The notes beneath the pieces were generated by a model. The model saw nothing but the letters and a program-made list of their open reading frames with translations, ran no database searches and had not been told where the DNA came from. Below are positions 3,945-43,564 of a stretch of 64,000 bases of DNA, piece by piece. Numbering within the stretch: the first letter of the stretch is position 1; each line of letters begins with the position of its first letter. This stretch comes from Candidatus Omnitrophota bacterium (GTDB lineage Bacteria; Omnitrophota; Gorgyraeia; DTHP01). The DNA is taken from NCBI GenBank assembly GCA_023819145.1, contig JAMWCW010000001.1, forward strand, positions 66,400 through 130,399, given 5' to 3'. Both the position numbers and the translations under genes were made by a program.

Positions 3945-4015
3945 TTAATGTAGAAGAGAGGTACTTTATAAAACTTAAATTTCAATATCATAAATTAACT
4001 TTCTAGAATAAAAAG

Positions 4016-4201
4016 ATGAGAGATTTTAATTATTTCTTTCTATTGGAAAGTGAAAAAATAGTTTCTCATTCTAAAGGGTATCAAGCCCTGATTAAAGCAT
4101 TGGAGCATGGTTTTGAAGGATTAGACAAGGAAATAGCCAAGAGGTTAATAAATTCCTATTTATATTTAAATGAAAGGAGGGAATGTAATGAAAGGTTCTA
4201 A
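4016..4201 (+). CDS. Small hypothetical ORF (61 aa) between the promoter and the GAPDH-like gene
   Basis: ORF only; weak RBS; overlaps the start of the next gene. Could be a leader peptide or spurious. Confidence 0.2.
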   Translation: MRDFNYFFLLESEKIVSHSKGYQALIKALEHGFEGLDKEIAKRLINSYLYLNERRECNERF

Positions 4202-6611: not shown

Positions 6612-6644
6612 AAAATAAGATTTATTCTCGCAAAAGGAGGAATT

Positions 6645-8798: not shown

Positions 8799-8868
8799 GA
8801 TCTTATAATTCTTCTTAGTAATTGAAGTTGTCTAAAAATTATTTGCTACTAAAGGAGGGATTGTAGAG

Positions 8869-10407: not shown

Positions 10408-10461
10408 AGAGATAACTTATTTTATTTGGCATTTTTAAAACAAATAGGTTTCTGAGTATTT

Positions 10462-11253: not shown

Positions 11254-11325
11254 TGAGATTTGCTACTCTTAAAGAAATTATCTTGCGGCGAGAAATGATC
11301 ACAATTTTAAGGGGGAGGAAGTGAT

Positions 11326-26300: not shown

Positions 26301-29300
26301 ATCTGATTTTAGGAGGAAAAATTTATGAGCTTTCTTTAGCAGAAGATGGATCAATCTTTACAATTAGCCAAACTCCTATTATTACGATTGAGCAACAAAC
26401 TTGGGAAGCAATAAGAACACTTATTGCTTACGAGCGGACAAATACTGGAAGTGTAACTGGCCCGAGTGCAATTGGCTGGGCTGATATTAGTATAGTAATA
26501 GAAAAAGAGGACAAAGTGTACTTTGAGGTGCCAGTGAAATCAATTGATGAGGGAAGATATGTATTGAGATTTGATAGTAAGGGACAATTAATTAAGAGAG
26601 ATGGTGCAGTATTGAGTTTTACTCCCACAGATTCAGATGAATCCCAAAAAGCAGAAAGCTTTAAAACATTTTTGCAAAATAATGTAGGCAATCTTCCTTT
26701 ATCTGCAGCAGGCAAAGCCTATGAGAGATTTTGTTCACAGTTGGCAATTGCTGGTGTGGCTAAAGTAGATTGGGAGATATTTCTTCGTAGCTGGAATGAA
26801 GGGGCAAAAACTCTTGAAGGCTTTAGTGACCCCGGATGGGGTGGGGGACTTAGTAGGAGCGAACTTATCGCGGCATTGGAGCTTAGTGATGAGCAGAAAC
26901 AACAGCAGTTGCGTAGAATTGAGGCTACAGATATAAATGGGTTTAATAAATATCTTTATATTGATGACAAGGGAAATATAGTTTATGTAGAAGAACTACC
27001 TGATCCCTCGAAAGGAAAATATAAAGGATATTTATTAAGGTATCAGTGGAATGATTCTGCTAATCCTCCGGAAGCGAATATTTCTGGAGTATTGGTAGGA
27101 GCTATGCAGCGTTCAACTTCACAAAATGTTTTATCACAAAATGTTTTATATGGAATAGTAGCAGAGGTTGATAATGGTGGGGGTTATGTAAAATTGAATG
27201 ATAAAGGATTTGAATTAAATTTAAATATTATATTTAAAGGTAATAACAAGGGGTATGAGAATCTTTTTGATTTTGAAACATACAAAATCGAAATCAAGGT
27301 TAGTAGAGTGGATAATACATTGACGCAGGTAGAAACAACGAATTGGGCTAATTCTAATGCGCAAAGATGGTATACGAGCTCTACCATTACTACAGTAGTA
27401 GGGCTACTGGAGGATGGGAAATTTGAAAAAAAGCGAGAAGAAAGGGTATTAAAAAATAATGAGGGGGAGCAAGAAACAATCACTTTTCCTGAATTTGATG
27501 GAAAAGGCAACCCCACTAAAAAACAGGTGCATTCTTTGAGGAAAGTCGATATTGAGGGTTGGGAATGGAGAGAGGATAATTATACAGAGACAGGAACTCT
27601 TAACAGTAATCAACAATGGGTGAGGAAAGGTTATGAACCTAATACTCAAAGGACAATTAAGCTAAGTAGAGGAAATGGGGATTATCTACAGCAGGAGTAC
27701 TCTATAGATGGAAATGGAAAAGCAATCAGATGTGTTATTGAGGAAAAAAGAGGTTCGGTAACTGCCAAAGTAGAAGAAGAAGTAGTAGGTGAAGGGGATT
27801 TATTATTCTTAGGAGAGAATACACAACTTACCTTGAATATTAATGGAGATAGGATAGATCCCAAAACAGGACAAACGGTAAGTGTAAGTGGCAATAATGT
27901 AGTAAGGTCTGTTTATGTATTTAAGGACGAAGAGGTGGCAGCACTTAAACAGCAGGGCTTAACCATAAGGGCTGGTATTCCTTATATCCTTGATAAATAT
28001 GAAGATGGTTCGTTTAGAATATATACCGCATTTGTAGAACAAACATATCTTGATGCACAAGGAAAACCTAAAGCGTATTATGTGGCTGGAGAATATGTAG
28101 GAACCCTTGGTTCAAAAAAAGCCAGTGACGGTGCCAGTGGCGGAGGCGGTGGAGGAGGTGGAGGAGGTGGAGGAGGTGGACCGGCAGGAAGTGACAAAAT
28201 TCCTCCTTCACAAATAGCTAATCAGGATACAGGAGAGATTGTTGGTGGTATGGAAGGGCAATTAGATGGTTTTGTGAAAAGAAGCTATCCTGAGAGAGTA
28301 GAGGAATTAGCTCATACTTATCGGGCAATGGGTCCGGGAATGAAGGAGAGAGCACTTTCTATAAACGATAGAGATAGTGCCAGAATATATCTATTGGGGA
28401 GATTTCTTTCCAGAGATAAAATTAAACAAGTTCTTTCGGTTCTTAAAAATAAGAATCTTTCTATTGAGGAAAAACGCGCTTTACTTAAGAAACTGGGGCT
28501 TTCGGATAAATTGCTTGACTTACTCCTTAATGGTGATGAAGAAGCATTAATTAAAGAAGCTCAAAAAATGCTCCTTAAGGATTTCGGGCTTTCTGATGAG
28601 GAGATTGAAGAATTCTTCAAGAGCAGTGATAAAAAAGGATATTTGCAGAAGAAAGGACTTTCTGATGAACGCATTGAGGCGGTAATGGAGATAACAGATT
28701 TAGAGAAGGCTCAAGAGGCAATCCTTAATCAGGAGGCAGTTTTGGAAGAGTTGCTCAGTGAGGAAGAGAAAGCACTTATGGAGGAGCTTTTTGCTTTGTT
28801 AGAGGAATATACCGGATTTATTAGTGATGAAGAGTATGCGGAATTAAGGGAGATTTTGGTAGATTTGGGGCTTTCTGAGGAGACCATAGATGATTTAATA
28901 GGTAAAAATGCGGATGAGTTTATGAATAGTCAGTTGCGGAATTGGGCAATGATGGATGAGAAAAATATTCTTGAATTGGCAAGGATGCTTTTCTTTGATG
29001 AAGACTTAAAGTTAGATAAATGGACTGCGGAGTTTATTGTAAAAGGTGATGAGTTTATGGTAAATGAGCTCTTAAGTAAAATTAGACAAGCAGTAAAAGA
29101 GTATCTTGAAGAGTATTGGGGTAAAGAGGTCAGTGAAGAAGAAGTTAAAGGTTTGGATGAGGCGACTAGAGAGAAAATTGCCGATGCTTTACTGCAAGCG
29201 ATAGGTAGAGGAGGACTTACGCTGGAAAATGCTTCTAAAAAAGTAAAGGAAATTCTTGCAGAGATTATCCCTTTGAAGGAAGCGAAAGAGGAGAAGAGCC

Positions 29301-29443
29301 CTATTCAGCCAGCACCTTCTCCGGAACCGTTACAGCCACAATCTCTTGCTGCGGTAAGTATTCAGGGTAACTGGAGGAGCAAAAATAATGATGATGATAT
29401 TCCGCGGTTGTTAAGAGAAAAAAATGAACTCAGAAGCAGATAG
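23396..29443 (+). CDS. Giant secreted protein (2015 aa) with poly-Gly linker and C-terminal acidic helical GLSDEE-type repeats
   Basis: Signal-like N-terminus, DxDxDG-like FDLDNDGNVD, a run of 14 Gly, then repeated LGLSDExIEE / GLSEETIDDL motifs. RBS AAAGGAGGG. No catalytic motif recognised. Confidence 0.5.
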   Translation: MKKTRFLLNRAGGILILFLILAFTKPGEGLFFTGDDPTQYHMSTGCGMYGNGCNAFGDQERQTPGLLRQMSSSPASIQFKDGIPVTGDSVRWSLFDLDNDGNVDCYIDESGNRYLKTITSDGIITGYILAKNLENGDLDVQVYGYTQTSGYFPIIPIEPLDHTEQNTQVVETQYRLVAHFKVDQAAGLNSLIKAILDDTRLQSFLQKFDPNMNSMLNVGGQQLKLVESFTYNDTDSEWNKNDQEEKYYSSINGYLKREVISGKEYYYVYNSDYTLAARYTKDTSGDITSLTFITPSGGAFERGKLISGTEYELSGASLGYLKGLSELSLNINNIGSLMEKSAIIAGTSWLKLGENHYFQLKKGTIEQVVTVTVADDGKSSSLTLQRLKLEDDKLVVVNGQSITVSNALLTGKLPSGYLDSSITSPKVLDLILKGASIDYTHQRIYFDYTGKTYAYDVTGEGLQYYYVYYMGGGNTLPLLQIYGPDTNITTENPDLTLTVPQELKITNFTFNVKGTSATLSFQADGKEYTYNLPTSKNGSFTLSIDPQATGAGVIAPTIKILPPALSEEQKRWIASILGLEDDPGGRTAVQQLDNLLGDSQNYFVTGNYFGIQSGESIFIFNTSSLSAGSRYLKFDGKNLIINEGTTTITIGDFAKVLKSLGFSAWLDAFKSMEEDSLRTLFGLNPSNSANFTLAFEKIITEAQKEFYNFSFEKDTSGSNYSPRGYAKAMLDNSRSVVVVEFYISDGDSFTKVLGFDRPTLLQILDRSETFEGLYEKAKGFVRNISYVKRLDGTYVWVCSIGNKFVQFYSIGGGSEWWALAVDATGDVTVYDSGWEIKYTIAKIELESSPSPSVDLVKSLIFDEQTLHLLRLSIEQRGDGGVTGVTIQRNKIEVWELKKASANSNALKRIEKFTLLGEESVVAGRATPLDPEPVIEFGSRKIKEIQFTNFAGMVTFARGISFKTQGDKSYLILGGKIYELSLAEDGSIFTISQTPIITIEQQTWEAIRTLIAYERTNTGSVTGPSAIGWADISIVIEKEDKVYFEVPVKSIDEGRYVLRFDSKGQLIKRDGAVLSFTPTDSDESQKAESFKTFLQNNVGNLPLSAAGKAYERFCSQLAIAGVAKVDWEIFLRSWNEGAKTLEGFSDPGWGGGLSRSELIAALELSDEQKQQQLRRIEATDINGFNKYLYIDDKGNIVYVEELPDPSKGKYKGYLLRYQWNDSANPPEANISGVLVGAMQRSTSQNVLSQNVLYGIVAEVDNGGGYVKLNDKGFELNLNIIFKGNNKGYENLFDFETYKIEIKVSRVDNTLTQVETTNWANSNAQRWYTSSTITTVVGLLEDGKFEKKREERVLKNNEGEQETITFPEFDGKGNPTKKQVHSLRKVDIEGWEWREDNYTETGTLNSNQQWVRKGYEPNTQRTIKLSRGNGDYLQQEYSIDGNGKAIRCVIEEKRGSVTAKVEEEVVGEGDLLFLGENTQLTLNINGDRIDPKTGQTVSVSGNNVVRSVYVFKDEEVAALKQQGLTIRAGIPYILDKYEDGSFRIYTAFVEQTYLDAQGKPKAYYVAGEYVGTLGSKKASDGASGGGGGGGGGGGGGGPAGSDKIPPSQIANQDTGEIVGGMEGQLDGFVKRSYPERVEELAHTYRAMGPGMKERALSINDRDSARIYLLGRFLSRDKIKQVLSVLKNKNLSIEEKRALLKKLGLSDKLLDLLLNGDEEALIKEAQKMLLKDFGLSDEEIEEFFKSSDKKGYLQKKGLSDERIEAVMEITDLEKAQEAILNQEAVLEELLSEEEKALMEELFALLEEYTGFISDEEYAELREILVDLGLSEETIDDLIGKNADEFMNSQLRNWAMMDEKNILELARMLFFDEDLKLDKWTAEFIVKGDEFMVNELLSKIRQAVKEYLEEYWGKEVSEEEVKGLDEATREKIADALLQAIGRGGLTLENASKKVKEILAEIIPLKEAKEEKSPIQPAPSPEPLQPQSLAAVSIQGNWRSKNNDDDIPRLLREKNELRSR
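28138..28180 (+). repeat. (GGA/GGT)n simple sequence repeat encoding a poly-Gly tract
   Basis: ggcggaggcggtggaggaggtggaggaggtggaggaggtgga. Confidence 0.7.
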
Positions 29444-29622: not shown

Positions 29623-30276
29623 ATGAGAAAGAATTTTCTGGCAGTAGGAGAAATTTATCACGTGTTGAATAAAAGTATTGCGGGTTTTCAGATTTTTAAC
29701 GATGAAGATGAATATCAGCGAATGGCTGGGCTTTTTGCCTATTATCAAAAAGAGAATCCTCCAGTTAAGTTCTCTAAGTATTTAAATTCCAATAAAAAAG
29801 GTTCTGAGGGGGAGAATACAGGAAATAAATTAGTGGAAATTATCGCCTATTGTCTTATGCCTACCCATCTTCATCTCTTATTGAGACAGATGAAAGAAGA
29901 AGGGATTTCTCTTTTTATGGGAAATGTTTTAAATAGCTACACCCGCTATTTTAATACCCGACATAAGCGCAAAGGACCTCTCTGGGAGGGTAGATTTAAA
30001 AGAATTCAAGTAAAAACCGAGGAAAATTTATTGCACCTTACCCGCTATATCCATCTTAATCCGGTTACAGCGTATCTGGTGAACAAGCCCGAGGATTGGC
30101 TTTTTTCTTCTTATCGAGAGTATTTAGGTCAGGTTGATGGTAAGGAGAAAATTTGCAATTTTGAAGATTCTTTAGAGATAGGCCCTGACTATAAAGAATT
30201 TGTGGAAGATAGAATTTCTTACCAGAGAGAACTTGCTCAGATTAAAGATTTAATAGTTGAAAACCTCTCCACCTAA
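29623..30276 (+). CDS. REP-associated tyrosine transposase (RAYT; IS200/IS605-family Y1 HuH transposase)
   Basis: AYCLMPTHLHLLL (HuH motif), catalytic Tyr region NSYTRYFN, and GPLWEGRFKRI...YIHLNPV...WLFSSYREY fit the Y1_Tnp / RAYT fold. Flanked on both sides by REP doublets. Confidence 0.7.
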   Translation: MRKNFLAVGEIYHVLNKSIAGFQIFNDEDEYQRMAGLFAYYQKENPPVKFSKYLNSNKKGSEGENTGNKLVEIIAYCLMPTHLHLLLRQMKEEGISLFMGNVLNSYTRYFNTRHKRKGPLWEGRFKRIQVKTEENLLHLTRYIHLNPVTAYLVNKPEDWLFSSYREYLGQVDGKEKICNFEDSLEIGPDYKEFVEDRISYQRELAQIKDLIVENLST

Positions 30277-31612: not shown

Positions 31613-31680
31613 ATACTGTATCAAACCATATCAAGAAACTTTCTCGCTTATTTATTCCCAAATCTCACGAGAAAAGATAA

Positions 31681-31712
31681 ACCGTATCAGAGCCGTGATA
31701 CGGTATTTAATT
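31681..31712 (+). terminator. Possible rho-independent terminator hairpin
   Basis: accgtatca-gagccg-tgatacggt stem-loop followed by atttaattt. Confidence 0.3.
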
Positions 31713-31922
31713 TCCTAAATTACCGAGCCACTCTCCATAAAGCAAGGGTATCAACTGTATCATAATTCTTTAAAAACCCTTGCCAAAATCCCTGCCGAAA
31801 AAGATAAGAAAAAAATATAACCAAAATGATTTTTTTTCTTGACAAAAGTTCTTAATTATGATAAGGTTAAAACCCTGATACTGTTTGATATAGTTAAACC
31901 CCCTTTAAAACAGGAGGGAGAA

Positions 31923-34109
31923 ATGAAGAAAGGTTTATTAAGGAAAGGAACCTTCATCGGGTTTCTTTTTTTATTGTTCTGGACAAGTAAGGTGAAGGGA
32001 GAAAAACAGGAAAGGAGTTTGGATAGTATAGAGCTAAAAGAACGGAATGAAGGGATACGGTTGATTATCTTGACCGACCAACCAGTAGAATATTCAGTGT
32101 ATGAAACCGACCTTCCTCCACGGCTGATTGTTGACCTCATCGGTACAGATATTTATGCCCATTCTAGAGTACCTTCTCATCTTGTGGTAGATAAATCACA
32201 ACTTAGGGCGGTGAACTTGCGTTGGTATGGCAAGCCTCCAGAAAAAGAAGGAGAACGGGCAAAAGTAGATTTGATAGAGTTTTTGCTAAAGAAAAAAGTT
32301 AAATATAAAGTGCTTAAACAAAATAACCGGATTATCGTAGATTTGGATTTACCGGGTTTTGTGCCTACGAAAGAGATAACGGAGGAGAAAGAAGTAAAAA
32401 CCCCTTTAGTAAATTTAGAACCCAGATTTCTGGAAGAAACCGAGGGTTGGGAAAAATGGATGGACATTGCCCTTGCCAATTACAAACCACTCCATATCGC
32501 TTATGAACAGGTGGAACTGGCACAGATAAAGGTGCGCGAAGCAAGAAGAATGCTTTTCCCGATTACGGTGATTAAGGCTGGACGCACCCGCGGTGATACT
32601 TCCGTAAGGGATGTCAGTTTTACGGAACAATCCTTTGGGATTCAGATGGAACAACCCATTAGCCAGGGAGGAGAACTGCGTTATAAATTGGAACAGGCTC
32701 TGGTTAATATGGATATTGCTCAGCGCGAGTATGAGCGGATAAAGGCAGATTATATGCTGGAAGTGAAACGCGCCTATTACAATTTACTGATTTATATTAT
32801 GAATGCAAAAATTTATGAAGATATTTTTAAGGAAGCAAATGATTTTTTGGAAATGGCCAAAAACCACTATGAAAAGAAATTAATTACCCAGTTGGAATTC
32901 CTCAATGTCCAGTCCCTCTATAGCCAGATTAAATACCAGCTGGTGGCTGCCCAGAAAGACCGCACCTTGGCAGAGCTTACTTTCAAACAAGTGCTAAACT
33001 TAGACCCCACGGTTACGCTGGAGCTTGAAGGCTGGTTAAAATTTGAAAAGCTTAATTTACACTTAGAACGGTGCAAGGAAATTGCTTTTAAGAAGAGGCC
33101 AGAGTTATCCATTAATGAGTTGATTGTCCGCTTTAATGAGTTAGGACAGAAAGCAGCAGATTCCAAAGAGAAACTTAAAGTTAGTCTAAGCGGATATTTG
33201 GGCACTACGGGAAGTGCCTATGATACTGAAGAGTTAAAGATGAAATCTGACTGGTTTCTAGGGCTTAAACTGAGCAAGGCATTTGGAGGGAATACCTTAA
33301 ATACCTCCCTGGTCAAGGAAGAGACGGTTCCTCGGCTTTCTCTTTCCCAGGAAAAAACCGGGAGTATAAGCGCCTCTGCAGAGTTTAATCTCTTAGATGG
33401 ACTTAGTCGTTTATCAGAGAAAAAAGGAGCCAGCGTAGAATATCTGCGCGCGGTGAATGAATTGTGGGAGGTGAAAAAGACTGTGGAATCAGAAGTGGTC
33501 AGTTCTTTTAACGAGTATCAGAAAGCCCTTTATCAATTAGATAATGTCTGGGAACGTATCCAGTTTCAGAAGAAGCGCGTGGATGTGACGGAGGCGCGCT
33601 GGAAACTGAATGAGGCAGGTATTTCTGATGTGCTGGAAGCAAAGATTGCCCTTGCTTCGGAAAAAGCATATTACAATAATCTCTTAGCCAATTACTATGG
33701 GGCGTTGAGCACGCTTACAAAAGCGTGCGGTCTGTATAAATATGCGGAGTTGATTCAAGGAGCTTCTCCGGAAATATTCTGGCATCGGGTAGCGGGAACA
33801 GAGGAACTTGATTATACCCAACTGCATAAGGAAGTTTTTCTTCCTAAGGGCGAGAAAATAGTCAAAATTGAGGACCTTCCCGGAGGGAAAATTATTGCGG
33901 TAAATAACGAAAGTGGTTTTGCCATCATTAATCTCGGTCAGGACCAGGGTGTAAGAGAAGGAGCAGAGTTGTGGGTGTATCGCCGGAAGGAAAAGGTGGG
34001 AGTATTAAAAGTCAGTAAGACCAAAAATGCTACTTCTTCTTGTAGGATTGCCCGTGCGGAAGCAGGAGAGAAAATTAGATTAGGGGATGAAGTAAAGGTA
34101 ATACCTTAG
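31923..34109 (+). CDS. TolC-family outer membrane efflux protein with extra C-terminal beta-rich domain
   Basis: Signal peptide MKKGLLRKGTFIGFLFLLFWTS after RBS GGAGGGAG. Long amphipathic coiled-coil repeats typical of OEP/TolC. Followed by MFP and RND genes. C-terminal ~75 aa (GFAIINLGQDQGVREGAELWVY...) is shared with ORF 42350. Confidence 0.5.
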   Translation: MKKGLLRKGTFIGFLFLLFWTSKVKGEKQERSLDSIELKERNEGIRLIILTDQPVEYSVYETDLPPRLIVDLIGTDIYAHSRVPSHLVVDKSQLRAVNLRWYGKPPEKEGERAKVDLIEFLLKKKVKYKVLKQNNRIIVDLDLPGFVPTKEITEEKEVKTPLVNLEPRFLEETEGWEKWMDIALANYKPLHIAYEQVELAQIKVREARRMLFPITVIKAGRTRGDTSVRDVSFTEQSFGIQMEQPISQGGELRYKLEQALVNMDIAQREYERIKADYMLEVKRAYYNLLIYIMNAKIYEDIFKEANDFLEMAKNHYEKKLITQLEFLNVQSLYSQIKYQLVAAQKDRTLAELTFKQVLNLDPTVTLELEGWLKFEKLNLHLERCKEIAFKKRPELSINELIVRFNELGQKAADSKEKLKVSLSGYLGTTGSAYDTEELKMKSDWFLGLKLSKAFGGNTLNTSLVKEETVPRLSLSQEKTGSISASAEFNLLDGLSRLSEKKGASVEYLRAVNELWEVKKTVESEVVSSFNEYQKALYQLDNVWERIQFQKKRVDVTEARWKLNEAGISDVLEAKIALASEKAYYNNLLANYYGALSTLTKACGLYKYAELIQGASPEIFWHRVAGTEELDYTQLHKEVFLPKGEKIVKIEDLPGGKIIAVNNESGFAIINLGQDQGVREGAELWVYRRKEKVGVLKVSKTKNATSSCRIARAEAGEKIRLGDEVKVIP

Positions 34110-34142: not shown

Positions 34143-35411
34143 ATGGCAAAAATGTCTCCTAAGAATTTAAGGATTGTAATTTTGATACTTATGGTGGTGT
34201 TAGTGATGGTTTTAGCGAAGAAATTAGCCAAGCCACCTCCGCAACCCCCAAAAGGGAGGACTACTGCTACTAAGGTTAGTCCCAAACTTACGCGGGGCGC
34301 AGAAGTGAAAAAGGAAGAAAAAAAGAAGAAAAAAGAGGAAAAAGCACCTCAGATTCCTTCTGCCTTGGAACAATTGCTGATGGGCACGGGTGAGGCAGAG
34401 AAAATTCCCGTTAAAGTTTATAAAATCTCCCGCACCGATTTTCAGGATGAACTGCCCATTGTGGGAACAGTAAGGAGTATTCCGGAGATAGACCTGAAGT
34501 TTGAGATAAATGGCAGAGTGGCAGAAATCCGGTTTAAGGAAGGAGAGCGGGTGAAAAAAGGAGAGCTTATTGCCCGGTTAGACCAAAAAGATGCCCAGTT
34601 AGAACTCTCTTGGGCAGAGGCAAAATATAATGCGGCGTTAGCAGAGGCAGAAGCAGTAAAGAAACGTGCAGAGACTATTGAGAAATTGTATGAAGTAGGG
34701 GCAATTGTAGAAGCACGGGTGGAAGAAGCAAGAGCAGAAGTCAAAGCCTCAGAAGAAAGAGCCAAAGTAGCAAAGGCAGAAGTAGAATCGGCTAAATCAA
34801 GACTGGAAAAGACTAATCTCTATGCTTCTCAAAATGGGATTATGGGCCCCCGGGACCTAGATGTAGGAGAGTTTGTTACCCCCAATGAACGTTTGGGAAC
34901 GCTTTTTAGTGAAGAGAATACTTTTATTGAAGTGGGGGTGATTGAAAAAGATATAGGTAAAGTTCAGACGGGTCAGAGGGTCATTGTAAATGTTGACGCT
35001 TATCCCTATACTGATTTCTATGGAGTAGTAGAAAATATCTTTCCTAACTTAGAAGCACGTACCCGCACCTTGAATGTACGCATCAGACTTATAGAAACCA
35101 AAACGACGCTTCTTCCAGGAATGTTTGCCCGGACAAGGATTGTGGTCTATACGAAAAAGAATGCCTTGGTTGTTCCCAGCACCGCACTGTCAGTAGAAGG
35201 GAGAAGATATTTTGTTCCCGTTGTTAAGGATAATCGGGTAAGGAATAAAGAAGTGTTTACCGAGTATGCCACGTTAGACTATGCAGTGATTGCCCGTGGA
35301 TTGGAAGAAGGGGAATTGGTTATTGTTGAGACGCCGGGATTAAAGAAATTAAAAGACGGAACTCCTGTGGAGATTACCGAGACCCAAGAGAAATTGGCCT
35401 CGGGTAAATAG
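34143..35411 (+). CDS. Efflux RND periplasmic adaptor (membrane fusion protein, HlyD/AcrA family)
   Basis: N-terminal TM, Lys/Glu-rich linker, long Ala/Glu coiled-coil hairpin, beta-barrel region; sits between the TolC-like and RND genes. Confidence 0.65.
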   Translation: MAKMSPKNLRIVILILMVVLVMVLAKKLAKPPPQPPKGRTTATKVSPKLTRGAEVKKEEKKKKKEEKAPQIPSALEQLLMGTGEAEKIPVKVYKISRTDFQDELPIVGTVRSIPEIDLKFEINGRVAEIRFKEGERVKKGELIARLDQKDAQLELSWAEAKYNAALAEAEAVKKRAETIEKLYEVGAIVEARVEEARAEVKASEERAKVAKAEVESAKSRLEKTNLYASQNGIMGPRDLDVGEFVTPNERLGTLFSEENTFIEVGVIEKDIGKVQTGQRVIVNVDAYPYTDFYGVVENIFPNLEARTRTLNVRIRLIETKTTLLPGMFARTRIVVYTKKNALVVPSTALSVEGRRYFVPVVKDNRVRNKEVFTEYATLDYAVIARGLEEGELVIVETPGLKKLKDGTPVEITETQEKLASGK

Positions 35412-35495: not shown

Positions 35496-38400
35496 ATGAG
35501 ATTACCTGAGTTTTCAGTAAGAAAGCCGGTTACGGTAACCATGATTTTTCTGGGAGTGGCGCTTTTAGGATACATTTCCTGGACAAGACTTCCCCAAGCA
35601 CTTTTTCCTGCCATTACTTATCCCCAGATTACAGTAGTTACCGTTTACGAAAACGCTGCTCCCGAAGAGGTAGAGATTCTTATCACCAAAGTTATTGAAG
35701 AGGTGGTAGGTACTGTACCTAATCTTAAACGCATTTCTTCTATCTCCAAAGAGGGTCTTTCCACAATTATTCTAGAATTTAACTGGGGAACCAATATGGA
35801 TTTGGCTTCTTTGGCAGTGCGGGAGAAAATTGATTTAATTAAAGAAAGACTTCCCTTAGGCGCGCAAGACCCGATTGTAATGAAATATAATCCTTTTGAA
35901 CTTCCGGTAGTGATTCTTTCGGTTACCGGACCAATCAGCCCTCTGGAATTACGCGAGGTCTGCCGTAAGGTAATCAAAGATGAAATAGAAAAAATTGAGG
36001 GTGTTGCCTCCGCAAACATTACCGGAGGATGGGAAAGGGAAATCATCGTGGAAGTTGACCAAGGAAGACTTTCCGCAAACGGAATTCCTATTTTGCGCAT
36101 TGTTAATGCCTTGAAGGAAACAAATTTTTCTTTTCCTGCAGGGACAATAAAGGAGACATTTTTTGAGTATCTGATTCGCACCATGGGAGAATTCGAAAGG
36201 GTTAATGAAGTAAAGAGTGTGGTAATCGAAGCAATGGAACCCAACCCACCAAAGACTCGTTACGAAATGTTCTTGCAGGAAAGAGAGAAGAAAGAAAAAG
36301 ATAGACGCCTGATTTCTCTTTCCGATTTAGCCACGGTAAGAGATGCTTGGAAGGAACAAACCTCCATCTCCCGCTACAACGGCAAAGACAATGTGACGGT
36401 TTCGGTAATGAAACAGGCGGATGCCAATGTTGTGCTTACCGCACGTAAGGTAAGAGAGGTTTTGGAGAAGATTAAAGATAGAATTCCTAAACAATTGAAT
36501 GTAGAAGTTATCTATGACCAGTCGGAATTTATCCGCGCTTCCATCCAGGATTTAAAGACAAATGCCTGGCAGGGAGGCGTGCTTGCCTTTTTAGTACTTT
36601 TGTTATTCTTGCGCGAGTTCCGTAGTTCTTTGATTATCAGTCTCTCCATACCTGTTTCCATTATGGCTGCGCTGTGCATGATGTATTTTCAGGGCATAAG
36701 TATCAATATGATGTCCCTAGGAGGATTGGCTTTAGGAGTGGGAATGATTGTAGATAATTCCATCGTTGTTTTGGAAAACATTTATCGTTATCGCAAACAG
36801 TATGGCAAAGGATTTAGGGAAGCAGTTATTTTGGGAGCAACCGAGATGGGCTCGGCAATTACCGGTTCGACATTGACTACCGTTGTCGTTTTTGTTCCCC
36901 TAATCTATGTGGTGGGAATTGCCGGGCAACTTTTCCGAGAAATGGCTTTGACCATTACCTACTCTTTGCTTATTTCTTTGGTTGTTGCTTTGACGCTTGT
37001 TCCTCGTCTGGCAGCAATAGGTAGCGAAAAAAAAGAGATAGAGATTAGTAAAGAGGTAAGGAAAAAAGAGCCAAAATTCTTCTTAAAGATCGGTAATGCC
37101 TATGCAAGACTAATTGCTATTTTTTTAAAATTTCGTTTTATAGGTCTTTTTCTCATTGGACTTGTTTTTATTTTGAGTATTGGGATGCTTGCTAAATCGG
37201 ACCGAGAATTGTTGCCCAAAATTGATGAGAGGCAGTTTGTTCTGAAATTAGAGATGCAGACCGGAACAAAATTAGAAGTAACCGACCGAATATGCCGAGA
37301 GGTGGAGAAAGCACTTTTAAGTATTCCCGATATAGAAGGCGTAAGTTTGGCTATCGGTTCTACACGTGAGGAAAGAACCGGTGAAGTGGTGGAGACGATG
37401 GGTTCGCACCAAGCACGCTTTGTTGTGAATTTAAAGAAAGTGAATCGCCGGGACCCTGGTTATCGCTCGACGCAAGAGATAATTAATGTTTTCCAGGAGG
37501 AATTGGCGCATGCAAATTTGGAAGGAGCGCGTCTGGAGTATATTTTGCAAGAAAGTGTGTTCAAGATGGCTTTTCAGGCAGGTAAACCCATAAGTTTAGA
37601 AATAAAAGGGCATGATTTAAAAACTCTGGAAGCAATTTCCAAAGATATGGAGAAAATGTTGCAAGGAATTTCTGGGGTTTATGGAGTTACTTCCTCACTC
37701 GCTCCTCCCCATCCTGAAACAAAAGTCAATGTTTTAAAAGATAAGGCAGCTTACTATAATCTCTCGGTAAACGATATCGCTATGTCTGCCCAAGTGGCTA
37801 TCAAAGGACATGTCGCCACCAAGTTTAAAGAAATGGGGCAGGAATATGATATAAGAGTGCGATTGAGGGAAGAGGACAGGAATGAGATGAATAAACTAAG
37901 GCAGATATTGATTCATTCTAATGCGCTTGATGTGGATATTCCGCTTTCTGATGTTGCCTATATTGTTTCCGGAACCGGTCCAAGTCAGATTGAAAGATTA
38001 GACCAGCAGAGAGTAATCGTCCTTTCTGCTAATATTTATAAACGTGGATTTGATAAAGTGGCGAAGGACATTGAATCTGCTTTATCCCGCTACAGGATAC
38101 CCGAGGGATTTACTATAAAGTTGGGAGGCGAGCGTAAGGATATGGAAGAATCTTTTAAATCATTGCGTTTTGCCCTTATCCTTTCACTTATTCTCAACTA
38201 TATGGTTATGGCTTCGGAATTCGAATCTTTATGGCAACCGTTTATTATTATGTTCAATCTTCCTCTATCAATAATCGGTGTTGCCTTGGCAATATTTTTC
38301 ACCCGTACCACTTTAAATTCGGTGGTGATTTTAGGAACGATTATGTTGGGAGGAATTGTGGTTAATAATGGAATTGTTTTAATCGAGACGATAAACAGCC

Positions 38401-39026
38401 TCCGTAAGGAAGGGATGGTTGTAGAGAAGGCTTTAATCCAGGCAGGATTACAGAGGGTGCGTCCGATTATGATGACCTCGTTGACTACAATATTGGGACT
38501 ACTTCCGCTTGCTTTGGGTTTAGGAGAGGGAGCTGAATTGCGTGCGCCGATGGCAATTACGGTTATTGGAGGGCTATTATCCGGAACATTCTTGACCCTT
38601 TTGGTGATTCCAGCTCTCTATTTAATCGTGTTTAGATTCTTTGCCCTCTTTAGAAAGAAGGAGGTTTTAGTAGAGATTGAGCCGCCGGAAATAATTCACG
38701 AAGGCGTAAAGCCCATTCCTGTAGAAATAACCCCGGAGGTAAAAATACTACCTGAGAAAGAAACAGTTCCTCAAATTTCCGGCATTCCTTTTGCCGAAGA
38801 GAAACTTCCTTTAGTGGAAGAGGAGAAACTCGGCGGATTGAACGAACGTCAGAAAAAGTTTTTAGCAGAGTTAAAGACAAAAATTCGTCTTACACGCAAA
38901 GATTATATTAAATTATTTAATGTTTCTATGCCCACTGCTGCACGGGATATTAAGATTTTGGTAGAAAAAGGTTTTATCCGTGCTAAAGGTCCTGCAGGAC
39001 CGGGGAGATGGTATGAACTGACATAA
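35496..39026 (+). CDS. RND efflux permease (HAE1/AcrB family) with C-terminal winged-HTH extension
   Basis: 12-TM RND architecture with two large periplasmic loops and conserved GxS/TxMxxGG-type segments. The ~60-aa C-terminal tail LNERQKKFLAELK...ITRKDYIKLFNVSMPTAARDIKILVEKGFIRAKGPAGPGRWYEL is wHTH-like. Confidence 0.8.
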   Translation: MRLPEFSVRKPVTVTMIFLGVALLGYISWTRLPQALFPAITYPQITVVTVYENAAPEEVEILITKVIEEVVGTVPNLKRISSISKEGLSTIILEFNWGTNMDLASLAVREKIDLIKERLPLGAQDPIVMKYNPFELPVVILSVTGPISPLELREVCRKVIKDEIEKIEGVASANITGGWEREIIVEVDQGRLSANGIPILRIVNALKETNFSFPAGTIKETFFEYLIRTMGEFERVNEVKSVVIEAMEPNPPKTRYEMFLQEREKKEKDRRLISLSDLATVRDAWKEQTSISRYNGKDNVTVSVMKQADANVVLTARKVREVLEKIKDRIPKQLNVEVIYDQSEFIRASIQDLKTNAWQGGVLAFLVLLLFLREFRSSLIISLSIPVSIMAALCMMYFQGISINMMSLGGLALGVGMIVDNSIVVLENIYRYRKQYGKGFREAVILGATEMGSAITGSTLTTVVVFVPLIYVVGIAGQLFREMALTITYSLLISLVVALTLVPRLAAIGSEKKEIEISKEVRKKEPKFFLKIGNAYARLIAIFLKFRFIGLFLIGLVFILSIGMLAKSDRELLPKIDERQFVLKLEMQTGTKLEVTDRICREVEKALLSIPDIEGVSLAIGSTREERTGEVVETMGSHQARFVVNLKKVNRRDPGYRSTQEIINVFQEELAHANLEGARLEYILQESVFKMAFQAGKPISLEIKGHDLKTLEAISKDMEKMLQGISGVYGVTSSLAPPHPETKVNVLKDKAAYYNLSVNDIAMSAQVAIKGHVATKFKEMGQEYDIRVRLREEDRNEMNKLRQILIHSNALDVDIPLSDVAYIVSGTGPSQIERLDQQRVIVLSANIYKRGFDKVAKDIESALSRYRIPEGFTIKLGGERKDMEESFKSLRFALILSLILNYMVMASEFESLWQPFIIMFNLPLSIIGVALAIFFTRTTLNSVVILGTIMLGGIVVNNGIVLIETINSLRKEGMVVEKALIQAGLQRVRPIMMTSLTTILGLLPLALGLGEGAELRAPMAITVIGGLLSGTFLTLLVIPALYLIVFRFFALFRKKEVLVEIEPPEIIHEGVKPIPVEITPEVKILPEKETVPQISGIPFAEEKLPLVEEEKLGGLNERQKKFLAELKTKIRLTRKDYIKLFNVSMPTAARDIKILVEKGFIRAKGPAGPGRWYELT

Positions 39027-39196
39027 ATTCGAAGCACGAAATCCGAAGCTTGAAACAGGAAATTTAAAACTAGAAACTCTCGTTCCTTTGGGGCGATGTA
39101 ATTTGTAAATCGTAAACCGTAATTCAGGAAAACGAACCCGAAGAACAGAACTGACTGAACGAGCTAACGAACCAAAGGGAGTTAACATTAAGTAAA

Positions 39197-42100
39197 ATGA
39201 ATCTGCCAAAATTATCCATTCATCGGCCAGTTACTTTTACCATGGTTTTCTGGGGAATAATTCTTGTAGGCATAGTTTCCCTACAGCGTTTGCCTGTAGA
39301 GATGATGCCCAATGTAGCTTTTGAAGATATCTCCATAATTATTCAGATTCGAGGAGGAATTCCTCCTTCTGATGTAGAGATGCTGGTTACTAAGCCAGTG
39401 GAAGAGGCGGTTGGTGGTGTGAGTCACTTAAGGGAAATTATTTCTATCTCTGAGGAGGGAGAGTCGCGGGTGGTTTTAAGGTTTGAGCCCGGAACCAATA
39501 TGGATTTTGCCGCATTAGAGGTGAGAGAAAAATTTTCACGTATTGTTGATAAACTTCCCCGAGAAATTGAAAAGCCAGTGATTGCAAAATATCAAAAGAC
39601 TGATGTTCCAATAGTTATTCTTGCCGTTACCGGAATAGGTTATACTCCGGAAATTTTAAGACGCTTGGTAGATGAGAAGATAAAAGAGCGTTTTCAGCGT
39701 TTGGAAGGGGTGGCTAATGTGGAAGTAGTGGGAGGGAGAGAAAGGAAAATTCTCATTGAGGCAAGACAAGATGACTTACAGAGATACGGGATTCCCTTAG
39801 GCCGTGTGCTTAATATTTTAAATTTGAACAATCTTAATCTTCTGGCGGGAGAGATAAAGAGGGAAAGAGATAAATTTCTTATTCGCACGATGGGACAATA
39901 TGAAAATATTTCTGATATTGAGAATTTGGGAGTGGGGGTTTCTCATCAGGGTTCAGTAATCAGACTTAGAGATGTTGCTTTTGTGAAGGACTCTTTTCTT
40001 GAACCCATAGATTTGGCACGTGTGGATATCCAGCCGGTAGTTTCTTTGTATCTCCAGAAAGAATCAACTGCTAATACCGTTAAGGTAGTTGAATCGATAA
40101 AAAAAGAAATTGAAGAAACCCGCTTCATTATTCCTAAGGATATTGTAATGAAACTGACTTACAATCAAGCGGAGGCAATTCGTGATGCTATTTCTGCGGT
40201 AAAGAGTTCACTTTTCTGGGGAGGTATTTTGGCGATTATAGTACTTTTCTTTTTCTTGTGGGATTTGAAATCAACTTTAATTATTGGTATTTCTATTCCG
40301 GTTTCTGTCATCGCTACTTTTGCTTTTATGTTTTTTGCTAAACTTACTTTGAATGTTATGACTTTGAGTGGGCTTGCTTTAGGCATAGGGATGTTGGTGG
40401 ATAATTCTGTCGTGGTTTTGGATAATATTTTTAAAAAAAGAGAAGTCGGCCTTTCGCAGAAAAAGGCTGCAGAAGAGGGCAGTTCTGAAGTAACTTTGGC
40501 GATAACTGCTTCTACCCTTACCACGATCGTAGTTTTTTTGCCGATTGTTTTTGTAAATAAAGAGATTAGACTTCTGTATGTAGGGCTTTCCTTAACGGTG
40601 GTTTTTTCCCTGCTTGCCTCGTTGTTTGTGGCAATATCTTTTATACCGCTTTTGGGTTCGCGTTTAGTGATGCGTTCATACGGAAGGAAGATAGAAAATG
40701 TTCCCCGTGCGAGGAGATATTTTATAAAAATAAAGAAATTTTATCGAAACGCTTTAGCTAAAGCTCTCCATTTTCGTTATGCAATAGTGCTCGTTGCCTT
40801 CCTGCTTTTTATTTTTGCTCTCAAGATGGGGAAAAATTTAAAAACCGAGTTTATCGGAGTAACAGAACAAAATGAATTCACCATCCATGTGCAATTACCG
40901 GTGGGAGCGAAATTGGATGTTTCGGATAAGTGCGTAGAGCAGATAGAAAGGGTAGCCAAGGAGCTTCCTGAAGTCAGAACAATTTCTTCGCGCATTGAGC
41001 GCTGGTCTTCAAAAATATATGTAAGACTCTATCCTTTAGCCCAACGTGCAAGGTCTACCCAGGAGATTATTAATGAACTCCGTCCCAGAACTGAGGAGAT
41101 TGAACGTTACTATGATGCCTTCATCTATTTTGAAGAACCTCAGGAAGTAGGGACACGGGAAGTTTTTTTAGATGTGTTTGGTTATGATTATGAAGTATTG
41201 AAGAATCTTGCCATTGCTATGGCAAGTAAACTCCAGACAGTAAAAGGAATGACCGATGTCAAGATAAGAATGCGCGAAGGACGGCCAGAACTGCGATTAT
41301 TTATTGATAAAGAAAAAGCAGCTTCATTTGGGTTAAATATCGAAGATATTTCTACCACCATTCATGGACAGATGCGTGGTTTGCGTGCTACCTATTACCA
41401 TACGGAAGCAAAAGAGGTGGAAATAGTAGTGCGTCTTCATGAAGACGACCGTCGGCGGTTTAAAGATTTACATCGTCTTATTCTTACCTCTCGCGATGGA
41501 AATAGTGTTTATCTTAACCAGATTGCGAATTTTCGTTTTGATATCGGTCCGAGTGAAATCTGGCGCAAGAATAAACAGAGGATGGTTCAGGTGAGTGGAA
41601 GCAGAGGTTCTATGTCTTTGAAAGAAGCGGGTGAGAAAATTAAAGAGGCCTTAAAGAGCGTGGAATTTCCCAAAGACTATTTTTATCGCTTTGGTGGTGA
41701 TTATGAGAAAATGTTGAAAAATCAGAAAGAATTTACTTTTGCTATATTTTTAACTTTATTTTTGGTATACTTAGTAATGGCTTGTTTATTTGAGTCATAT
41801 GCTCAACCGTTAATTATTATGATGACAGTTCCTTTGGCAGCGATTGGTGTGGTTTCTATAATGCGAATTACGGATACTTCTATAAATATTGGCGCGCTGA
41901 TTGGATTTATGATGTTAGGGGGAATTGTGGTGAACAACGCCATAGTTTTAATTGATTTTATTAATTTAAAATTGCAAAATAAGAAGCATAAAAGGTATAA
42001 TTTACTCAAAGCTTTGATTTTTGCGGGAGAGGATAGGTTGCGTCCGATACTTATGACTACCATTACTACTTTATTGGGACTTACGCCGATGGCCCTTGAC

Positions 42101-42295
42101 CGTTCGGAGTCCGCAAGTCTCTGGTCTCCTCTAGCGATTACCGTTATGGGAGGTTTGACAAGTTCTACTTTTTTGACCCTTTTTATTATTCCCAGCTTAT
42201 TCTTGATTTTTGAAGACATAAAGAAATTTATATTGGCAGTTGTAATTGAAAGAAAGCCTTTGCTGAGTCTGAAACTTCTGCGAAGGACTACATAA
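39197..42295 (+). CDS. RND efflux permease (HAE1/AcrB family), second paralog
   Basis: Same architecture as the previous gene, no C-terminal HTH tail. Confidence 0.8.
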   Translation: MNLPKLSIHRPVTFTMVFWGIILVGIVSLQRLPVEMMPNVAFEDISIIIQIRGGIPPSDVEMLVTKPVEEAVGGVSHLREIISISEEGESRVVLRFEPGTNMDFAALEVREKFSRIVDKLPREIEKPVIAKYQKTDVPIVILAVTGIGYTPEILRRLVDEKIKERFQRLEGVANVEVVGGRERKILIEARQDDLQRYGIPLGRVLNILNLNNLNLLAGEIKRERDKFLIRTMGQYENISDIENLGVGVSHQGSVIRLRDVAFVKDSFLEPIDLARVDIQPVVSLYLQKESTANTVKVVESIKKEIEETRFIIPKDIVMKLTYNQAEAIRDAISAVKSSLFWGGILAIIVLFFFLWDLKSTLIIGISIPVSVIATFAFMFFAKLTLNVMTLSGLALGIGMLVDNSVVVLDNIFKKREVGLSQKKAAEEGSSEVTLAITASTLTTIVVFLPIVFVNKEIRLLYVGLSLTVVFSLLASLFVAISFIPLLGSRLVMRSYGRKIENVPRARRYFIKIKKFYRNALAKALHFRYAIVLVAFLLFIFALKMGKNLKTEFIGVTEQNEFTIHVQLPVGAKLDVSDKCVEQIERVAKELPEVRTISSRIERWSSKIYVRLYPLAQRARSTQEIINELRPRTEEIERYYDAFIYFEEPQEVGTREVFLDVFGYDYEVLKNLAIAMASKLQTVKGMTDVKIRMREGRPELRLFIDKEKAASFGLNIEDISTTIHGQMRGLRATYYHTEAKEVEIVVRLHEDDRRRFKDLHRLILTSRDGNSVYLNQIANFRFDIGPSEIWRKNKQRMVQVSGSRGSMSLKEAGEKIKEALKSVEFPKDYFYRFGGDYEKMLKNQKEFTFAIFLTLFLVYLVMACLFESYAQPLIIMMTVPLAAIGVVSIMRITDTSINIGALIGFMMLGGIVVNNAIVLIDFINLKLQNKKHKRYNLLKALIFAGEDRLRPILMTTITTLLGLTPMALDRSESASLWSPLAITVMGGLTSSTFLTLFIIPSLFLIFEDIKKFILAVVIERKPLLSLKLLRRTT

Positions 42296-42349: not shown

Positions 42350-43564
42350 ATGAGGCAAATTTTTCGCACACTCTTAACTGCGGTGTTTGTGCTTTTACTT
42401 TTTGTAATGGCTATTGCCTTATTTTATCTTGCTTCGGAAAAAAGAAAAATTACCAATCAATATAATAAAGACCGTGAATTGTGGACCATTAGAAATAACG
42501 CCTTACGGGAGAGCCTTAAGAAGAGTGAGGAAGATATCTTGAATTTAAAGAAAGAGTTGGAAGGTTTAAATGTTGAGTTAAAAAAGGCTAACGATGAATT
42601 AAGTGCATTGAGGTTGAGTTATGAAAATTTGAACAAAGAAAATCTTTCGCTCAATCAGAAAATCAATGTTTATTCGAGAGAAAGGGAAGGGCTTCTGCAA
42701 AAAATTGCACGTCTAGAACAGGATTTACGCATGGTTCAAAACACAAAAGCCCCACAAGAGGAATCTTGGGCGACTCTTTTGAAAGAAAAGGTTGATTTAC
42801 AGATGCGCATAAATGAGGTAGAAGAAAAACTTAAAAATAACCGTTTATTGATTACCCAATTGGAGACAGAACGGAGGAAGTTGGGAGAGCGTTTAAGCGG
42901 GGTTCAACTGGATAAGATTGGCATAGAGAAGAATCTTGGAAGTGGTGGGACTACCAAATCAACTTCTCCCCGTGATATATTGAAGGCAAATTTAGAAAAA
43001 GAAAATATGGAGCAGAAGTTAGCAGACTTGGCAATAGAGAAGGATAATTTGGAAGAGCGGATTATTTCCTTAAAAGAAGAAGTAGATAAAGCCGATGCAG
43101 AGAGAGATGTCCTTAATACCCAGATAGAACGTATAAATCAATTATTGGAAGAGAAGTTAAGCCAGATAAATAAAGTAAGAGAAGAATTGGAAAGTGCGCT
43201 TAAGGAAGCAAAACGCATAGCTCTTGCAGGAACTTCTCCTGTAGAACTCCCTCCGGTGGTAGTAAAGAAAGGAATAGCAGAAGGGACTCAGAAATTACCT
43301 CCGCCACCACGCATTCCTCCTCCCAGAACCGAACAGGCGAATATAGTTTTAGTTAACGAAAAATACAATTTCGTGATTATAAATGTGGGTAAAAGCGAAG
43401 GGGTTGTAGAAGGTATGCTTTTTGACCTCTATGAAAATAAAGAGAACATTGGGCAGATAAAGATAAAAGAAGTCAGAGAAAGACTTTCTGCAGGTGAGAT
43501 TGTAGAATTGAAAAAAGGTAAGAGCATAAAATCTGAAACCACTCTGGCAATATACTCTCCTTGA
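42350..43564 (+). CDS. Membrane-anchored coiled-coil protein with C-terminal beta-rich domain
   Basis: N-terminal TM, ~250 aa of heptad-like coiled coil, Pro-rich linker, then NFVIINVGKSEGVVEGMLFDLY...GQIKIKEV...GEIVE domain shared with the TolC-like C-terminus. Confidence 0.4.
   Translation: MRQIFRTLLTAVFVLLLFVMAIALFYLASEKRKITNQYNKDRELWTIRNNALRESLKKSEEDILNLKKELEGLNVELKKANDELSALRLSYENLNKENLSLNQKINVYSREREGLLQKIARLEQDLRMVQNTKAPQEESWATLLKEKVDLQMRINEVEEKLKNNRLLITQLETERRKLGERLSGVQLDKIGIEKNLGSGGTTKSTSPRDILKANLEKENMEQKLADLAIEKDNLEERIISLKEEVDKADAERDVLNTQIERINQLLEEKLSQINKVREELESALKEAKRIALAGTSPVELPPVVVKKGIAEGTQKLPPPPRIPPPRTEQANIVLVNEKYNFVIINVGKSEGVVEGMLFDLYENKENIGQIKIKEVRERLSAGEIVELKKGKSIKSETTLAIYSP

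Follow-up and report, generated by a model that had tools for sequence, protein, structure and literature searches.

A winged helix-turn-helix domain fused to an RND efflux permease in Omnitrophota: a conserved architecture and a candidate membrane-tethered DNA-binding module

Why should an efflux permease end in a domain of the kind that binds DNA, and is the protein that appears to do so the product of a single gene? These questions are raised by a locus in a 64,000-nucleotide stretch (hereafter the window) of a Candidatus Omnitrophota genome (GenBank assembly GCA_023819145.1, contig JAMWCW010000001.1, positions 66,400 to 130,399), in which a permease of the resistance-nodulation-division (RND) family, here called RND1, carries a winged helix-turn-helix (wHTH) domain at its C-terminus. 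An initial annotation, made from the sequence alone, described the tail as a wHTH of the DeoR/Fic C-terminal type on an AcrB-like permease, suggested that it might couple efflux to signalling, and named an artificial fusion of two genes, or a profile search that detects no helix-turn-helix, as outcomes that would undo this view. We find that the architecture itself, comprising a conserved fusion, a wHTH fold, selection upon that fold and a membrane tether, is certain. The best explanation we can offer for it, held tentatively and with slightly less than even confidence, is that this phylum-conserved protein is a membrane-tethered DNA-binding module, probably an autoregulatory one. The parts of the gene are the following, in window coordinates.

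35496-39026, forward strand: the RND1 gene (RND permease, C-terminal linker and wHTH; 1176 aa), a single open reading frame (ORF) whose product is identical to NCBI protein P0002
35496-38645, forward strand: the RND1 core (residues 1-1050), an RND/HAE1-type permease with the 12-transmembrane (12-TM) AcrB/MdtB fold (Pfam ACR_tran)
38646-38837, forward strand: the cytoplasmic spacer (residues 1051-1114), rich in Pro, Glu, Lys and Val and predicted to be unstructured (composition; AlphaFold2, AF2)
38838-39023, forward strand: the wHTH (residues 1115-1176, 62 aa; Pfam, AF2, Foldseek, PDB profile search)
38928-38966, forward strand: the recognition helix, MPTAARDIKILVE (limits from AF2; alignment of 33 orthologous tails)

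The reading frame of RND1 runs through 1176 codons with no stop and no frameshift, and positions 38838-39026 hold residues 1115-1176 and the stop codon, the tail sequence having been quoted exactly (LNERQKKFLAELK...GRWYELT). The extension beyond the last TM helix is real, and only its length requires adjustment, from the approximately 110 aa first given, a close figure, to about 125 aa past TM12 (a 63-aa linker and the 62-aa domain). The permease that bears it is AcrB-like as described: ACR_tran (PF00873; AcrB/AcrD/AcrF) matches residues 5-1045 with E 9e-238, a full-length match that scores 792 bits against a cut-off of 28 and takes in model positions 3-1020 of 1021. Among solved chains, E. 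coli MdtB lies nearest to the core (9lyq_B, E 4.5e-102), and the NCBIfam models for MdtB/MuxB and for MdtC both match RND1, each below its equivalog cut-off. The proton relay departs from the canonical AcrB set of D407, D408, K940 and R971. In TM4 (window 36700-36720) VDNS aligns to the canonical VDDA, such that D407 is kept and D408 is Asn; in TM10 (window 38320-38340) VVNNG aligns to A(C/S)KNA (canonical SAKNA), such that K940 is also Asn; and in TM11 R971 is kept within a conserved RVRPIMMTS. Given the replacement of D408 and K940, RND1 is, by its sequence, a member of a divergent RND subfamily, and its transport activity is putative.

What kind of domain, then, is the tail? In isolation it matches Pfam HTH_DeoR (PF08220) at 22.0 bits against a gathering threshold of 21 (E 1.4e-4), the corresponding score within the whole protein, 18.0 bits, being slightly too low to pass. 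An AF2 model built on an alignment of 33 sequences has a mean predicted local distance difference test (pLDDT) score of 90.7 and the helix-helix-helix-strand-strand topology of a wHTH, with a three-helix bundle followed by a beta-hairpin wing (helices at model positions 7-19, 24-31 and 35-47, strands at 51-54 and 62-65). In RND1 numbering the first helix occupies residues 1117-1129, the second 1134-1141, the third, or recognition, helix 1145-1157, and the wing 1161-1175. Foldseek aligns this model with the DNA-binding domains of AdcR, MarR, CadC, ArsR and AspA (probability 1.00, TM-score of about 0.8); the MarR-, AspA- and CadC-type matches are DNA-bound domains, and AspA is a centromere binder. 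A profile search of the PDB returns Fic2 of Coxiella burnetii first (8CIL, E 2.4e-4, 28-30% identity), followed by CRP, Lrs14 and SlyA/MarR, while single-sequence searches with the tail against the PDB and a word-indexed protein database return almost nothing, such that profiles are needed. The assignment to a DeoR/Fic C-terminal type of wHTH is thus upheld by Pfam, by the PDB profile match and by the model, and profile searches, the kind of check that had been proposed, do detect a helix-turn-helix. The likeness to DeoR is one of domain: DeoR_C is absent from RND1 in Pfam and the helix-turn-helix is C-terminal on a transporter, which places RND1 outside the DeoR family as defined for whole proteins. 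The database name 'DeoR family transcriptional regulator' on P0008 and P0190 is consequently a domain-level label only, and an occasional one; otherwise databases name these proteins 'efflux RND transporter permease subunit'.

Across the 33 aligned tails (domain numbering), S34, T37, A38, R40, D41 and L45 of the recognition helix are invariant and K43 is nearly so; likewise invariant are R8 and R24 at helix N-termini and G55, P56, G58, G60, R61 and Y63 in the wing, whose motif GPxGPGRWYEL is specific to the Omnitrophota group in this alignment. The domain is strongly basic; its net charge averages +6.5 among orthologues. As AcrB topology puts the N- and C-terminus both inside, we infer that the wHTH is cytoplasmic. 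The spacer that precedes it ranges from 24 to 125 aa in 110 orthologues (median 62) and contains 19% Pro, 15% Glu and 12% Lys, together with much Val, Ile and Ala; in other representatives it reaches 383 aa with a similar composition, and P0156, in which RND1, a coiled coil and the wHTH form one chain, has a 258-aa coiled coil in its place. Single-sequence AF2 modelling gives the spacer no secondary structure (pLDDT 54-67), and the sequences show that it has to be long and is otherwise free to vary.

Could a sequencing or assembly error have joined a small regulator gene to a permease gene? The protein identical to RND1 (P0002) derives from a Candidatus Omnitrophica metagenome-assembled genome (MAG), on a 221-kb contig. 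Among the 120 best homologues listed, drawn from NCBI, JGI, ENA and Logan assemblies and 50-86% identical to RND1, lengths of 1112-1264 aa and the same C-terminal motif, LNxRQ..LLE.LK....ITRKEY...F.IS.PTAARDLKEL.DKG.L.A.GPLGPGRWYEL, are found throughout (120/120), bar P0004 and P0109, and many orthologues carry precomputed matches to HTH_DeoR (PF08220), HTH_24 (PF13412) or HTH_11 (PF08279). P0109, a partial sequence of 736 aa, retains the motif at its end. P0004 (locus L004) has an in-frame TAG two codons upstream of the wHTH and is the one case that speaks for an artificial join. This TAG, at about 9990-10000 and followed by G-L(TTG)-N, occurs in a relative 86% identical and sequenced at ~3x coverage, and reflects either an error in sequencing or a natural variant that is truncated or read through.

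A scan of GTDB with one genome per species provides a second sample, in which 111 loci encode the wHTH and 80 were kept. Nearly all of the 80 are labelled Omnitrophota, the exceptions being some third-party annotation (TPA) bins labelled Planctomycetia or Planctomycetales, one Patescibacteria group and two named only 'bacterium'. Wherever the locus is complete, a single ORF holds both the wHTH and an RND1-type core, and an orthologue of the downstream permease gene, RND2, follows directly in all of the 80 loci that extend far enough. The only deviating loci are L004 and L030, the latter with a split core, and both come from MAGs of low coverage. The wHTH and the permease core each share 56% identity with the window protein, compared with 25% for the linker, and the wHTH is thus under strong purifying selection. 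An internal translation start yielding a free wHTH was also considered and rejected, as neither a start codon nor a Shine-Dalgarno sequence is conserved before the domain: the window has GAGGAG 12 nt before a TTG at 38838, yet across 78 loci TTG occurs at the domain start 16 times, against a background of 15%, and Shine-Dalgarno-like 4-mers in 14 of the 78. With more than 100 independent assemblies from four sources presenting one ORF, joined by linkers that differ in both length and sequence, the comparative data exclude a frameshift, an assembly artefact or two genes read as one, and the chance that an error made the fusion is vanishingly small. Both comparative checks called for at the outset, of retention in orthologues and of an artificial join, are thereby settled in favour of a single gene.

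To what machine does this protein belong? RND1 lies third in an operon of five genes, the others being as follows; the last three lines give related genes at other loci, in which the wHTH is carried by a separate protein.

31923-34109, forward strand: outer-membrane factor (OMF), OEP/TolC-like with an AMIN-like N-terminal region, first gene of the operon (Pfam OEP, 7e-37)
34143-35411, forward strand: membrane fusion protein (MFP), the periplasmic adaptor (Pfam HlyD_D23, HlyD_3)
39197-42295, forward strand: RND2, the tandem paralogue, 1032 aa, without the tail (ACR_tran at residues 5-1005; the next gene in all orthologous loci that are long enough)
42350-43564, forward strand: fifth gene, 404 aa; a TM helix at the N-terminus, then a long coiled coil and a small domain at the C-terminus (no Pfam family)
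L204, 5595-6584: split wHTH protein gene between RND2 and OEP
L205, 577-1527: the same
L206, 1026-1967: the same

The order OMF, MFP, RND1-wHTH, RND2, TM-coiled-coil and all five genes are kept in divergent Omnitrophota, with an alternative layout in some loci in which MFP follows RND2, and the MFP and OMF partners are conserved across orthologous loci. The true start of the OMF gene is the ATG at 31923, after an AGGAGG ribosome-binding site, and a signal peptide can be read from its sequence; the protein has an extra N-terminal module that is unusual for the TolC family, AMIN-like in the clade of the window and TonB_C-like in the main clade (L001, 4960-6783). As the initial annotation held, the tandem paralogue lacks the tail: RND2 ends about 25 aa past TM12. 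It has the same relay pattern as RND1, with Asn at the positions of AcrB D408 and K940, and D407 and R971 kept. The 170 bp between the two permease genes (39027-39196) form an unusually long spacer, most orthologues overlapping or abutting, and contain a 14-nt direct repeat (AAATTCGAAGCACG / AAATCCGAAGCTTG), two copies of AACGAACC and a terminator-like hairpin at 39080-39096. The fifth protein also carries a Pro-rich stretch.

Judged from gene content, the operon encodes an MdtBC-like tripartite efflux system with two paralogous permeases, of which RND1 is one. E. coli MdtABC (MdtB2C with the adaptor MdtA) similarly combines two tandem paralogous RND genes with an adaptor and an outer-membrane factor, and since MdtB, the closest solved chain, functions in a B2C heterotrimer, it is a reasonable inference that RND1 and RND2 form a heteromeric pump with one or two tails per trimer. 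Unlike in MdtABC, both permeases here have Asn in place of D408 and K940, and a fifth, TM-coiled-coil gene is present. We know of no Mdt, Acr or Mex permease with a C-terminal DNA-binding domain.

The strongest argument that the wHTH is a functional part of this machine, and not a passenger, comes from its pattern of fission and fusion. A wHTH profile was searched against 1.84 billion representatives and retrieved 203 proteins at E <= 1e-10, the strongest of which are RND fusions or C-terminal fragments of such fusions. Three small carriers (P0189, P0190 and P0160) instead place the same wHTH behind an N-terminal TM helix, a coiled coil of about 200 aa and a low-complexity stretch. The L204 cluster reads RND1, RND2, P0190, OEP, MFP, and its RND1 stops directly after TM12; L205 and L206 are alike, with a tail-less RND1 and the wHTH on a TM-coiled-coil protein within the efflux cluster. 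This split variant is rare (four clusters), and the main promoter of its clade was not recovered, its homologues being rare and on short contigs. The fifth gene of the window operon occupies the position of the split-variant proteins and resembles them at the level of the coiled coil only (E 0.02), and the two are positional equivalents. Because the split form sits in the same cluster, the carrier is interchangeable and the wHTH belongs to the efflux system, with membrane anchoring on a long spacer being obligatory whichever subunit bears it. Other carriers of this wHTH family include P0122 (2918 aa), with two AlbA_2/HATPase_c_4 units and four wHTH copies, P0164 (1497 aa), with 13 matched stretches, and P0193 (1019 aa), a helicase (ResIII and Helicase_C) with six tandem wHTH copies.

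If the domain binds DNA, which DNA might it read? Two further features of the window bear on this.

31618-31891, no strand assigned: cluster of AACCGTATCA-type sites around the operon promoter, a candidate operator (hexamer density; orthologous loci)
55988-57190, forward strand: ROK-family regulator gene, a rival candidate binder of the repeats (Pfam ROK, 2e-42)

Eight GTATCA/TGATAC-type sites (at 31618, 31628, 31684, 31696, 31748, 31757, 31876 and 31886) surround the operon promoter (TTGACA at 31839-31844, TAAGGT at 31862-31867), and a further copy of the repeat lies at 32053. This is the sole cluster of at least four hexamers per 300 bp in the window. When one mismatch or fewer is allowed, 7 of the 11 window matches to AACCGTATCA, the form to which flank conservation among orthologous loci extends the hexamer, fall at 31624-32062, compared with 2.6 expected for the whole window. 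More than 30 loci have a repeat cluster at the orthologous promoter, and in almost all loci whose sequence takes in the DNA upstream of OEP no other 300-bp window is as dense in sites; in 1.19 Mb of Omnitrophota DNA, 33 of the 36 paired sites are at the efflux promoter. The TTGACA-17-TATACT promoter of the main clade directly adjoins two copies spaced 11 bp apart, and more copies occur within the first 40 OEP codons; in the clade of the window, a reversed pair overlaps the transcription start region; and in a Saelkia-like clade the copies in the OEP coding region occur in different reading frames, which indicates that the constraint acts on DNA and not on protein. Rfam contains nothing that matches the promoter cluster, and no known RNA is therefore implicated. 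By the measure of its conservation, the repeat is a real cis-element of the efflux operon, for which the tethered wHTH, the ROK protein and a response regulator are the candidate binders; of these, only the wHTH is a DNA-binding domain whose linkage to the operon is universal.

A possible mechanism can be proposed from these observations. We consider it reasonably probable that the wHTH binds DNA, which would be double-stranded DNA contacted from an anchor in the membrane. With its 24 to about 390 aa of disordered or coiled-coil sequence, the spacer would let the domain reach into the nucleoid. Omnitrophota cells are ultra-small, about 0.2 um across (PMC10066038), for which reason a spacer of 60-400 aa could plausibly extend that far. 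The most likely target would be the phased AACCGTATCA repeats that flank or overlap the operon's own promoter and first codons, with T37, R40 and K43 contacting the bases of CCGTATCA. Each pump subunit would then bring one repressor or activator module, resulting in autogenous feedback on pump abundance, and the contact between wHTH and repeat would tie the operon to the membrane. That the domain does act at its own promoter repeats in this way, with autogenous feedback and possibly co-localisation of operon and membrane, we regard as doubtful when taken as a separate claim. Control would be exerted through copy number, through the avidity of a trimer's two or three tails on paired sites or through proteolytic release; because the tether is unstructured, these are favoured over allostery. 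The functional ideas first attached to the tail accordingly fare less well than its description. Across 24-390 aa of unstructured or coiled-coil spacer the transport cycle is unlikely to act on the wHTH allosterically, a one-component sensor is less likely than abundance feedback or tethering, and nothing in this analysis speaks specifically for anti-repressor sequestration.

Several observations weigh against a tethered, autoregulatory DNA-binding module. The wHTH is a predicted DNA binder, and elsewhere the same fold also mediates contacts between proteins. Recognition helix and DNA motif are both invariant, which leaves no covariation that could connect the two. Moreover, an expectation that the tandem form of the repeat would be exclusive to the efflux operon failed: a metagenome scan for ACCGTATCANNACCGTATCA retrieved mostly unrelated organisms. 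Among the matches listed, RND-wHTH genes were present on 1 of 80 ACCGTATCANNACCGTATCA loci, the others belonging to unrelated organisms with GC contents of 0.29-0.65, and no wHTH of the RND1-tail family was found near them. Linkage of a ROK gene to the operon recurs in about 28 orthologous loci across clades, and an unlinked response regulator of the OmpR type would also fit the 11-bp-phased direct repeats beside the -35 element. Finally, in the closest characterised relative, Fic2, DNA binding is neither sequence-specific nor dependent on the helix-turn-helix alone (PMC10628234).

The tandem repeat ACCGTATCANNACCGTATCA is widespread in unrelated bacteria, and its metagenomic sites (L084-L163, among the matches listed) fall into several families. 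One, of high GC, has a conserved downstream block, GTCGGCTGAGCGAAAGCAGACGCCCCAAGTTGTTGAAA; another, of low GC, follows a tRNA gene and lies upstream of a small membrane protein, MGKKYKLLE...; and further families form inverted arrays or long 11-bp tandem arrays. No neighbouring gene is common to these sites among the matches listed, and the repeats resemble iterons, or else the arm-type sites of an element. On L087, an Omnitrophota-like contig, the tandem repeat lies at about 5605, where parA and yidC-rnpA flank the parA-parB promoter region, about 3 kb from dnaA and hence near the replication origin; it is preceded by a hairpin also present in L013 and L025.

Fic2 leads to an alternative in which the wHTH is a non-specific nucleoid tether, anchoring the pump, or its operon while transcription, translation and insertion are coupled, to the nucleoid, or else fixing the chromosome to the envelope of a very small cell, while another protein binds the repeats. 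In Fic2 the wHTH mediates localisation to chromatin and DNA-induced dimerisation (PMC10628234), and because it acts there without demonstrated sequence specificity, a non-specific role is kept open here. The contribution of the Fic2 domain to general DNA or chromatin association, the high positive charge of the RND1 tail, a spacer constrained only to be long and PEVK-like (Pro, Glu, Val, Lys) or coiled coil, and the occurrence of the tandem motif in the parAB promoter region near dnaA on L087 are all in keeping with such a role. Yet the recognition-helix residues are invariant phylum-wide, which is more typical of sequence-specific readers, and a purely electrostatic role would not require a fold conserved at 56%; we consider the non-specific tether unlikely. 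An extension of the favoured module, in which the wHTH reads the phased repeats and the two or three tails of an RND trimer clamp their own promoter and operon 5' end, and possibly parAB/oriC-proximal loci as on L087, to the inner membrane, seems to us rather doubtful.

The ROK gene suggests a different role, in which the wHTH docks a cytoplasmic partner, such as the ROK protein, a protease or a kinase, and the repeats are that partner's operator. The ROK repressor Mlc is sequestered in this manner by the transporter PtsG, some systems employ wHTH domains in contacts between proteins, with ESCRT-II among the Foldseek matches to the RND1 model, and the linkage of ROK to the operon recurs across clades, the gene lying immediately upstream in many main-clade loci and a few kb downstream in another clade (12 kb downstream of the operon in the window). 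On the other hand, at least eight loci in which fusion and motif are both retained have no ROK gene in the flanks retrieved, and where the gene occurs it adjoins sugar-transport genes, as is usual for regulators of sugar metabolism (in the window, a solute-binding protein gene at 54698-55969). In addition, the conserved surface of the wHTH is the canonical DNA-reading face, formed by the recognition helix and the wing arginine, and docking appears quite improbable. A further alternative is regulated release, in which a protease would cut the linker, for example under envelope or efflux stress, and free a soluble 7-kDa wHTH to act on distant genes. Membrane-tethered factors freed by proteolysis are familiar from RseA/sigma-E and the eukaryotic SREBP, and proteases should be able to reach a linker that is long, exposed and of low complexity; however, the linkers share no conserved cleavage motif or segment (25% identity), no internal start for a free domain is conserved, and the coiled-coil variants are poor protease substrates. 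We give release a low probability.

How does the membrane-tethered module that we favour compare with known systems? The C-terminal wHTH of Coxiella Fic2 and DIP2311-like proteins shares with it the signature LNxRQ...ITxxxY...S..TAxRDL..L...G......G.GR..Y, and distant matches of the wHTH profile include Fic-like and AlbA_2-like proteins (E about 1e-13, search of representatives), although Pfam DIP2311-like_C (PF22168) does not match the window tail. Fic2, unlike RND1, carries its wHTH on a soluble enzyme through a rigid helix, as opposed to a polytopic transporter and a disordered spacer. Closer in logic are ToxR, CadC, TcpP and BcrR, which bind DNA at the membrane and, like RND1, unite in one polypeptide a membrane anchor, a part exposed to the periplasm and a wHTH or HTH on the cytoplasmic side. 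In ToxR and CadC (OmpR-type) and in BcrR (XRE-type), however, the DNA-binding domain lies at the N-terminus, near the membrane, and the anchor consists of one to four sensing helices, whereas RND1 has a C-terminal, DeoR/Fic-type domain on a 24-390-aa spacer and a full 12-TM transporter as its anchor; RND1-wHTH thus resembles the ToxR family in logic only, falls outside the definition of that family, and is not a member of it.

If autoregulation is true, RND1 would also be comparable to AcrR, MexR and other TetR/MarR repressors, as an operon-linked DNA-binding protein that acts at a pump promoter, and the 11-bp-phased direct repeats beside the -35 element resemble response-regulator boxes; two-component control of RND operons is exerted by BaeSR, CpxAR and AdeRS. 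All those regulators are separate, soluble proteins with ligand or receiver domains, whereas the wHTH of RND1 is covalently attached and has no ligand domain. RND pumps are among the best-studied bacterial transporters and, to our knowledge, all known examples are regulated by separate proteins; furthermore, a search of the accessible literature found no description of an RND-HTH fusion or of Omnitrophota efflux systems.

Elsewhere in the window, glycolytic and related genes at 2271-13551 (PGK, GAPDH, class II aldolase, PFK and an aminotransferase) are encoded by ORFs with N-terminal extensions of 95-480 aa that have no Pfam match; the GAPDH domains, for example, begin at residue 414 in a protein of 813 aa, and the aldolase domain, which follows an HHH_3 motif, begins at residue 487 in one of 717 aa. 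Two large ORFs, at 19002-23138 (1378 aa) and 23396-29443 (2015 aa), match no Pfam family at E <= 1e-5, and an IS200-like ORF (Y1 transposase) lies at 29623-30276, 1.6 kb upstream of the operon promoter.

The fusion provides a clean phylogenetic marker for Omnitrophota. If the module does act as proposed, it would constitute a new way to link a membrane machine to the chromosome, whether by counting pump subunits or by holding DNA at the envelope. Were the clamp described above also true, the transporter would be at once its own transcription factor and a chromosome-to-envelope anchor, an arrangement suited to 0.2-um cells with few regulators. As the domain is only 62 aa long and easily expressed, and a candidate DNA site is defined, regulation in an uncultivated phylum becomes testable in vitro.

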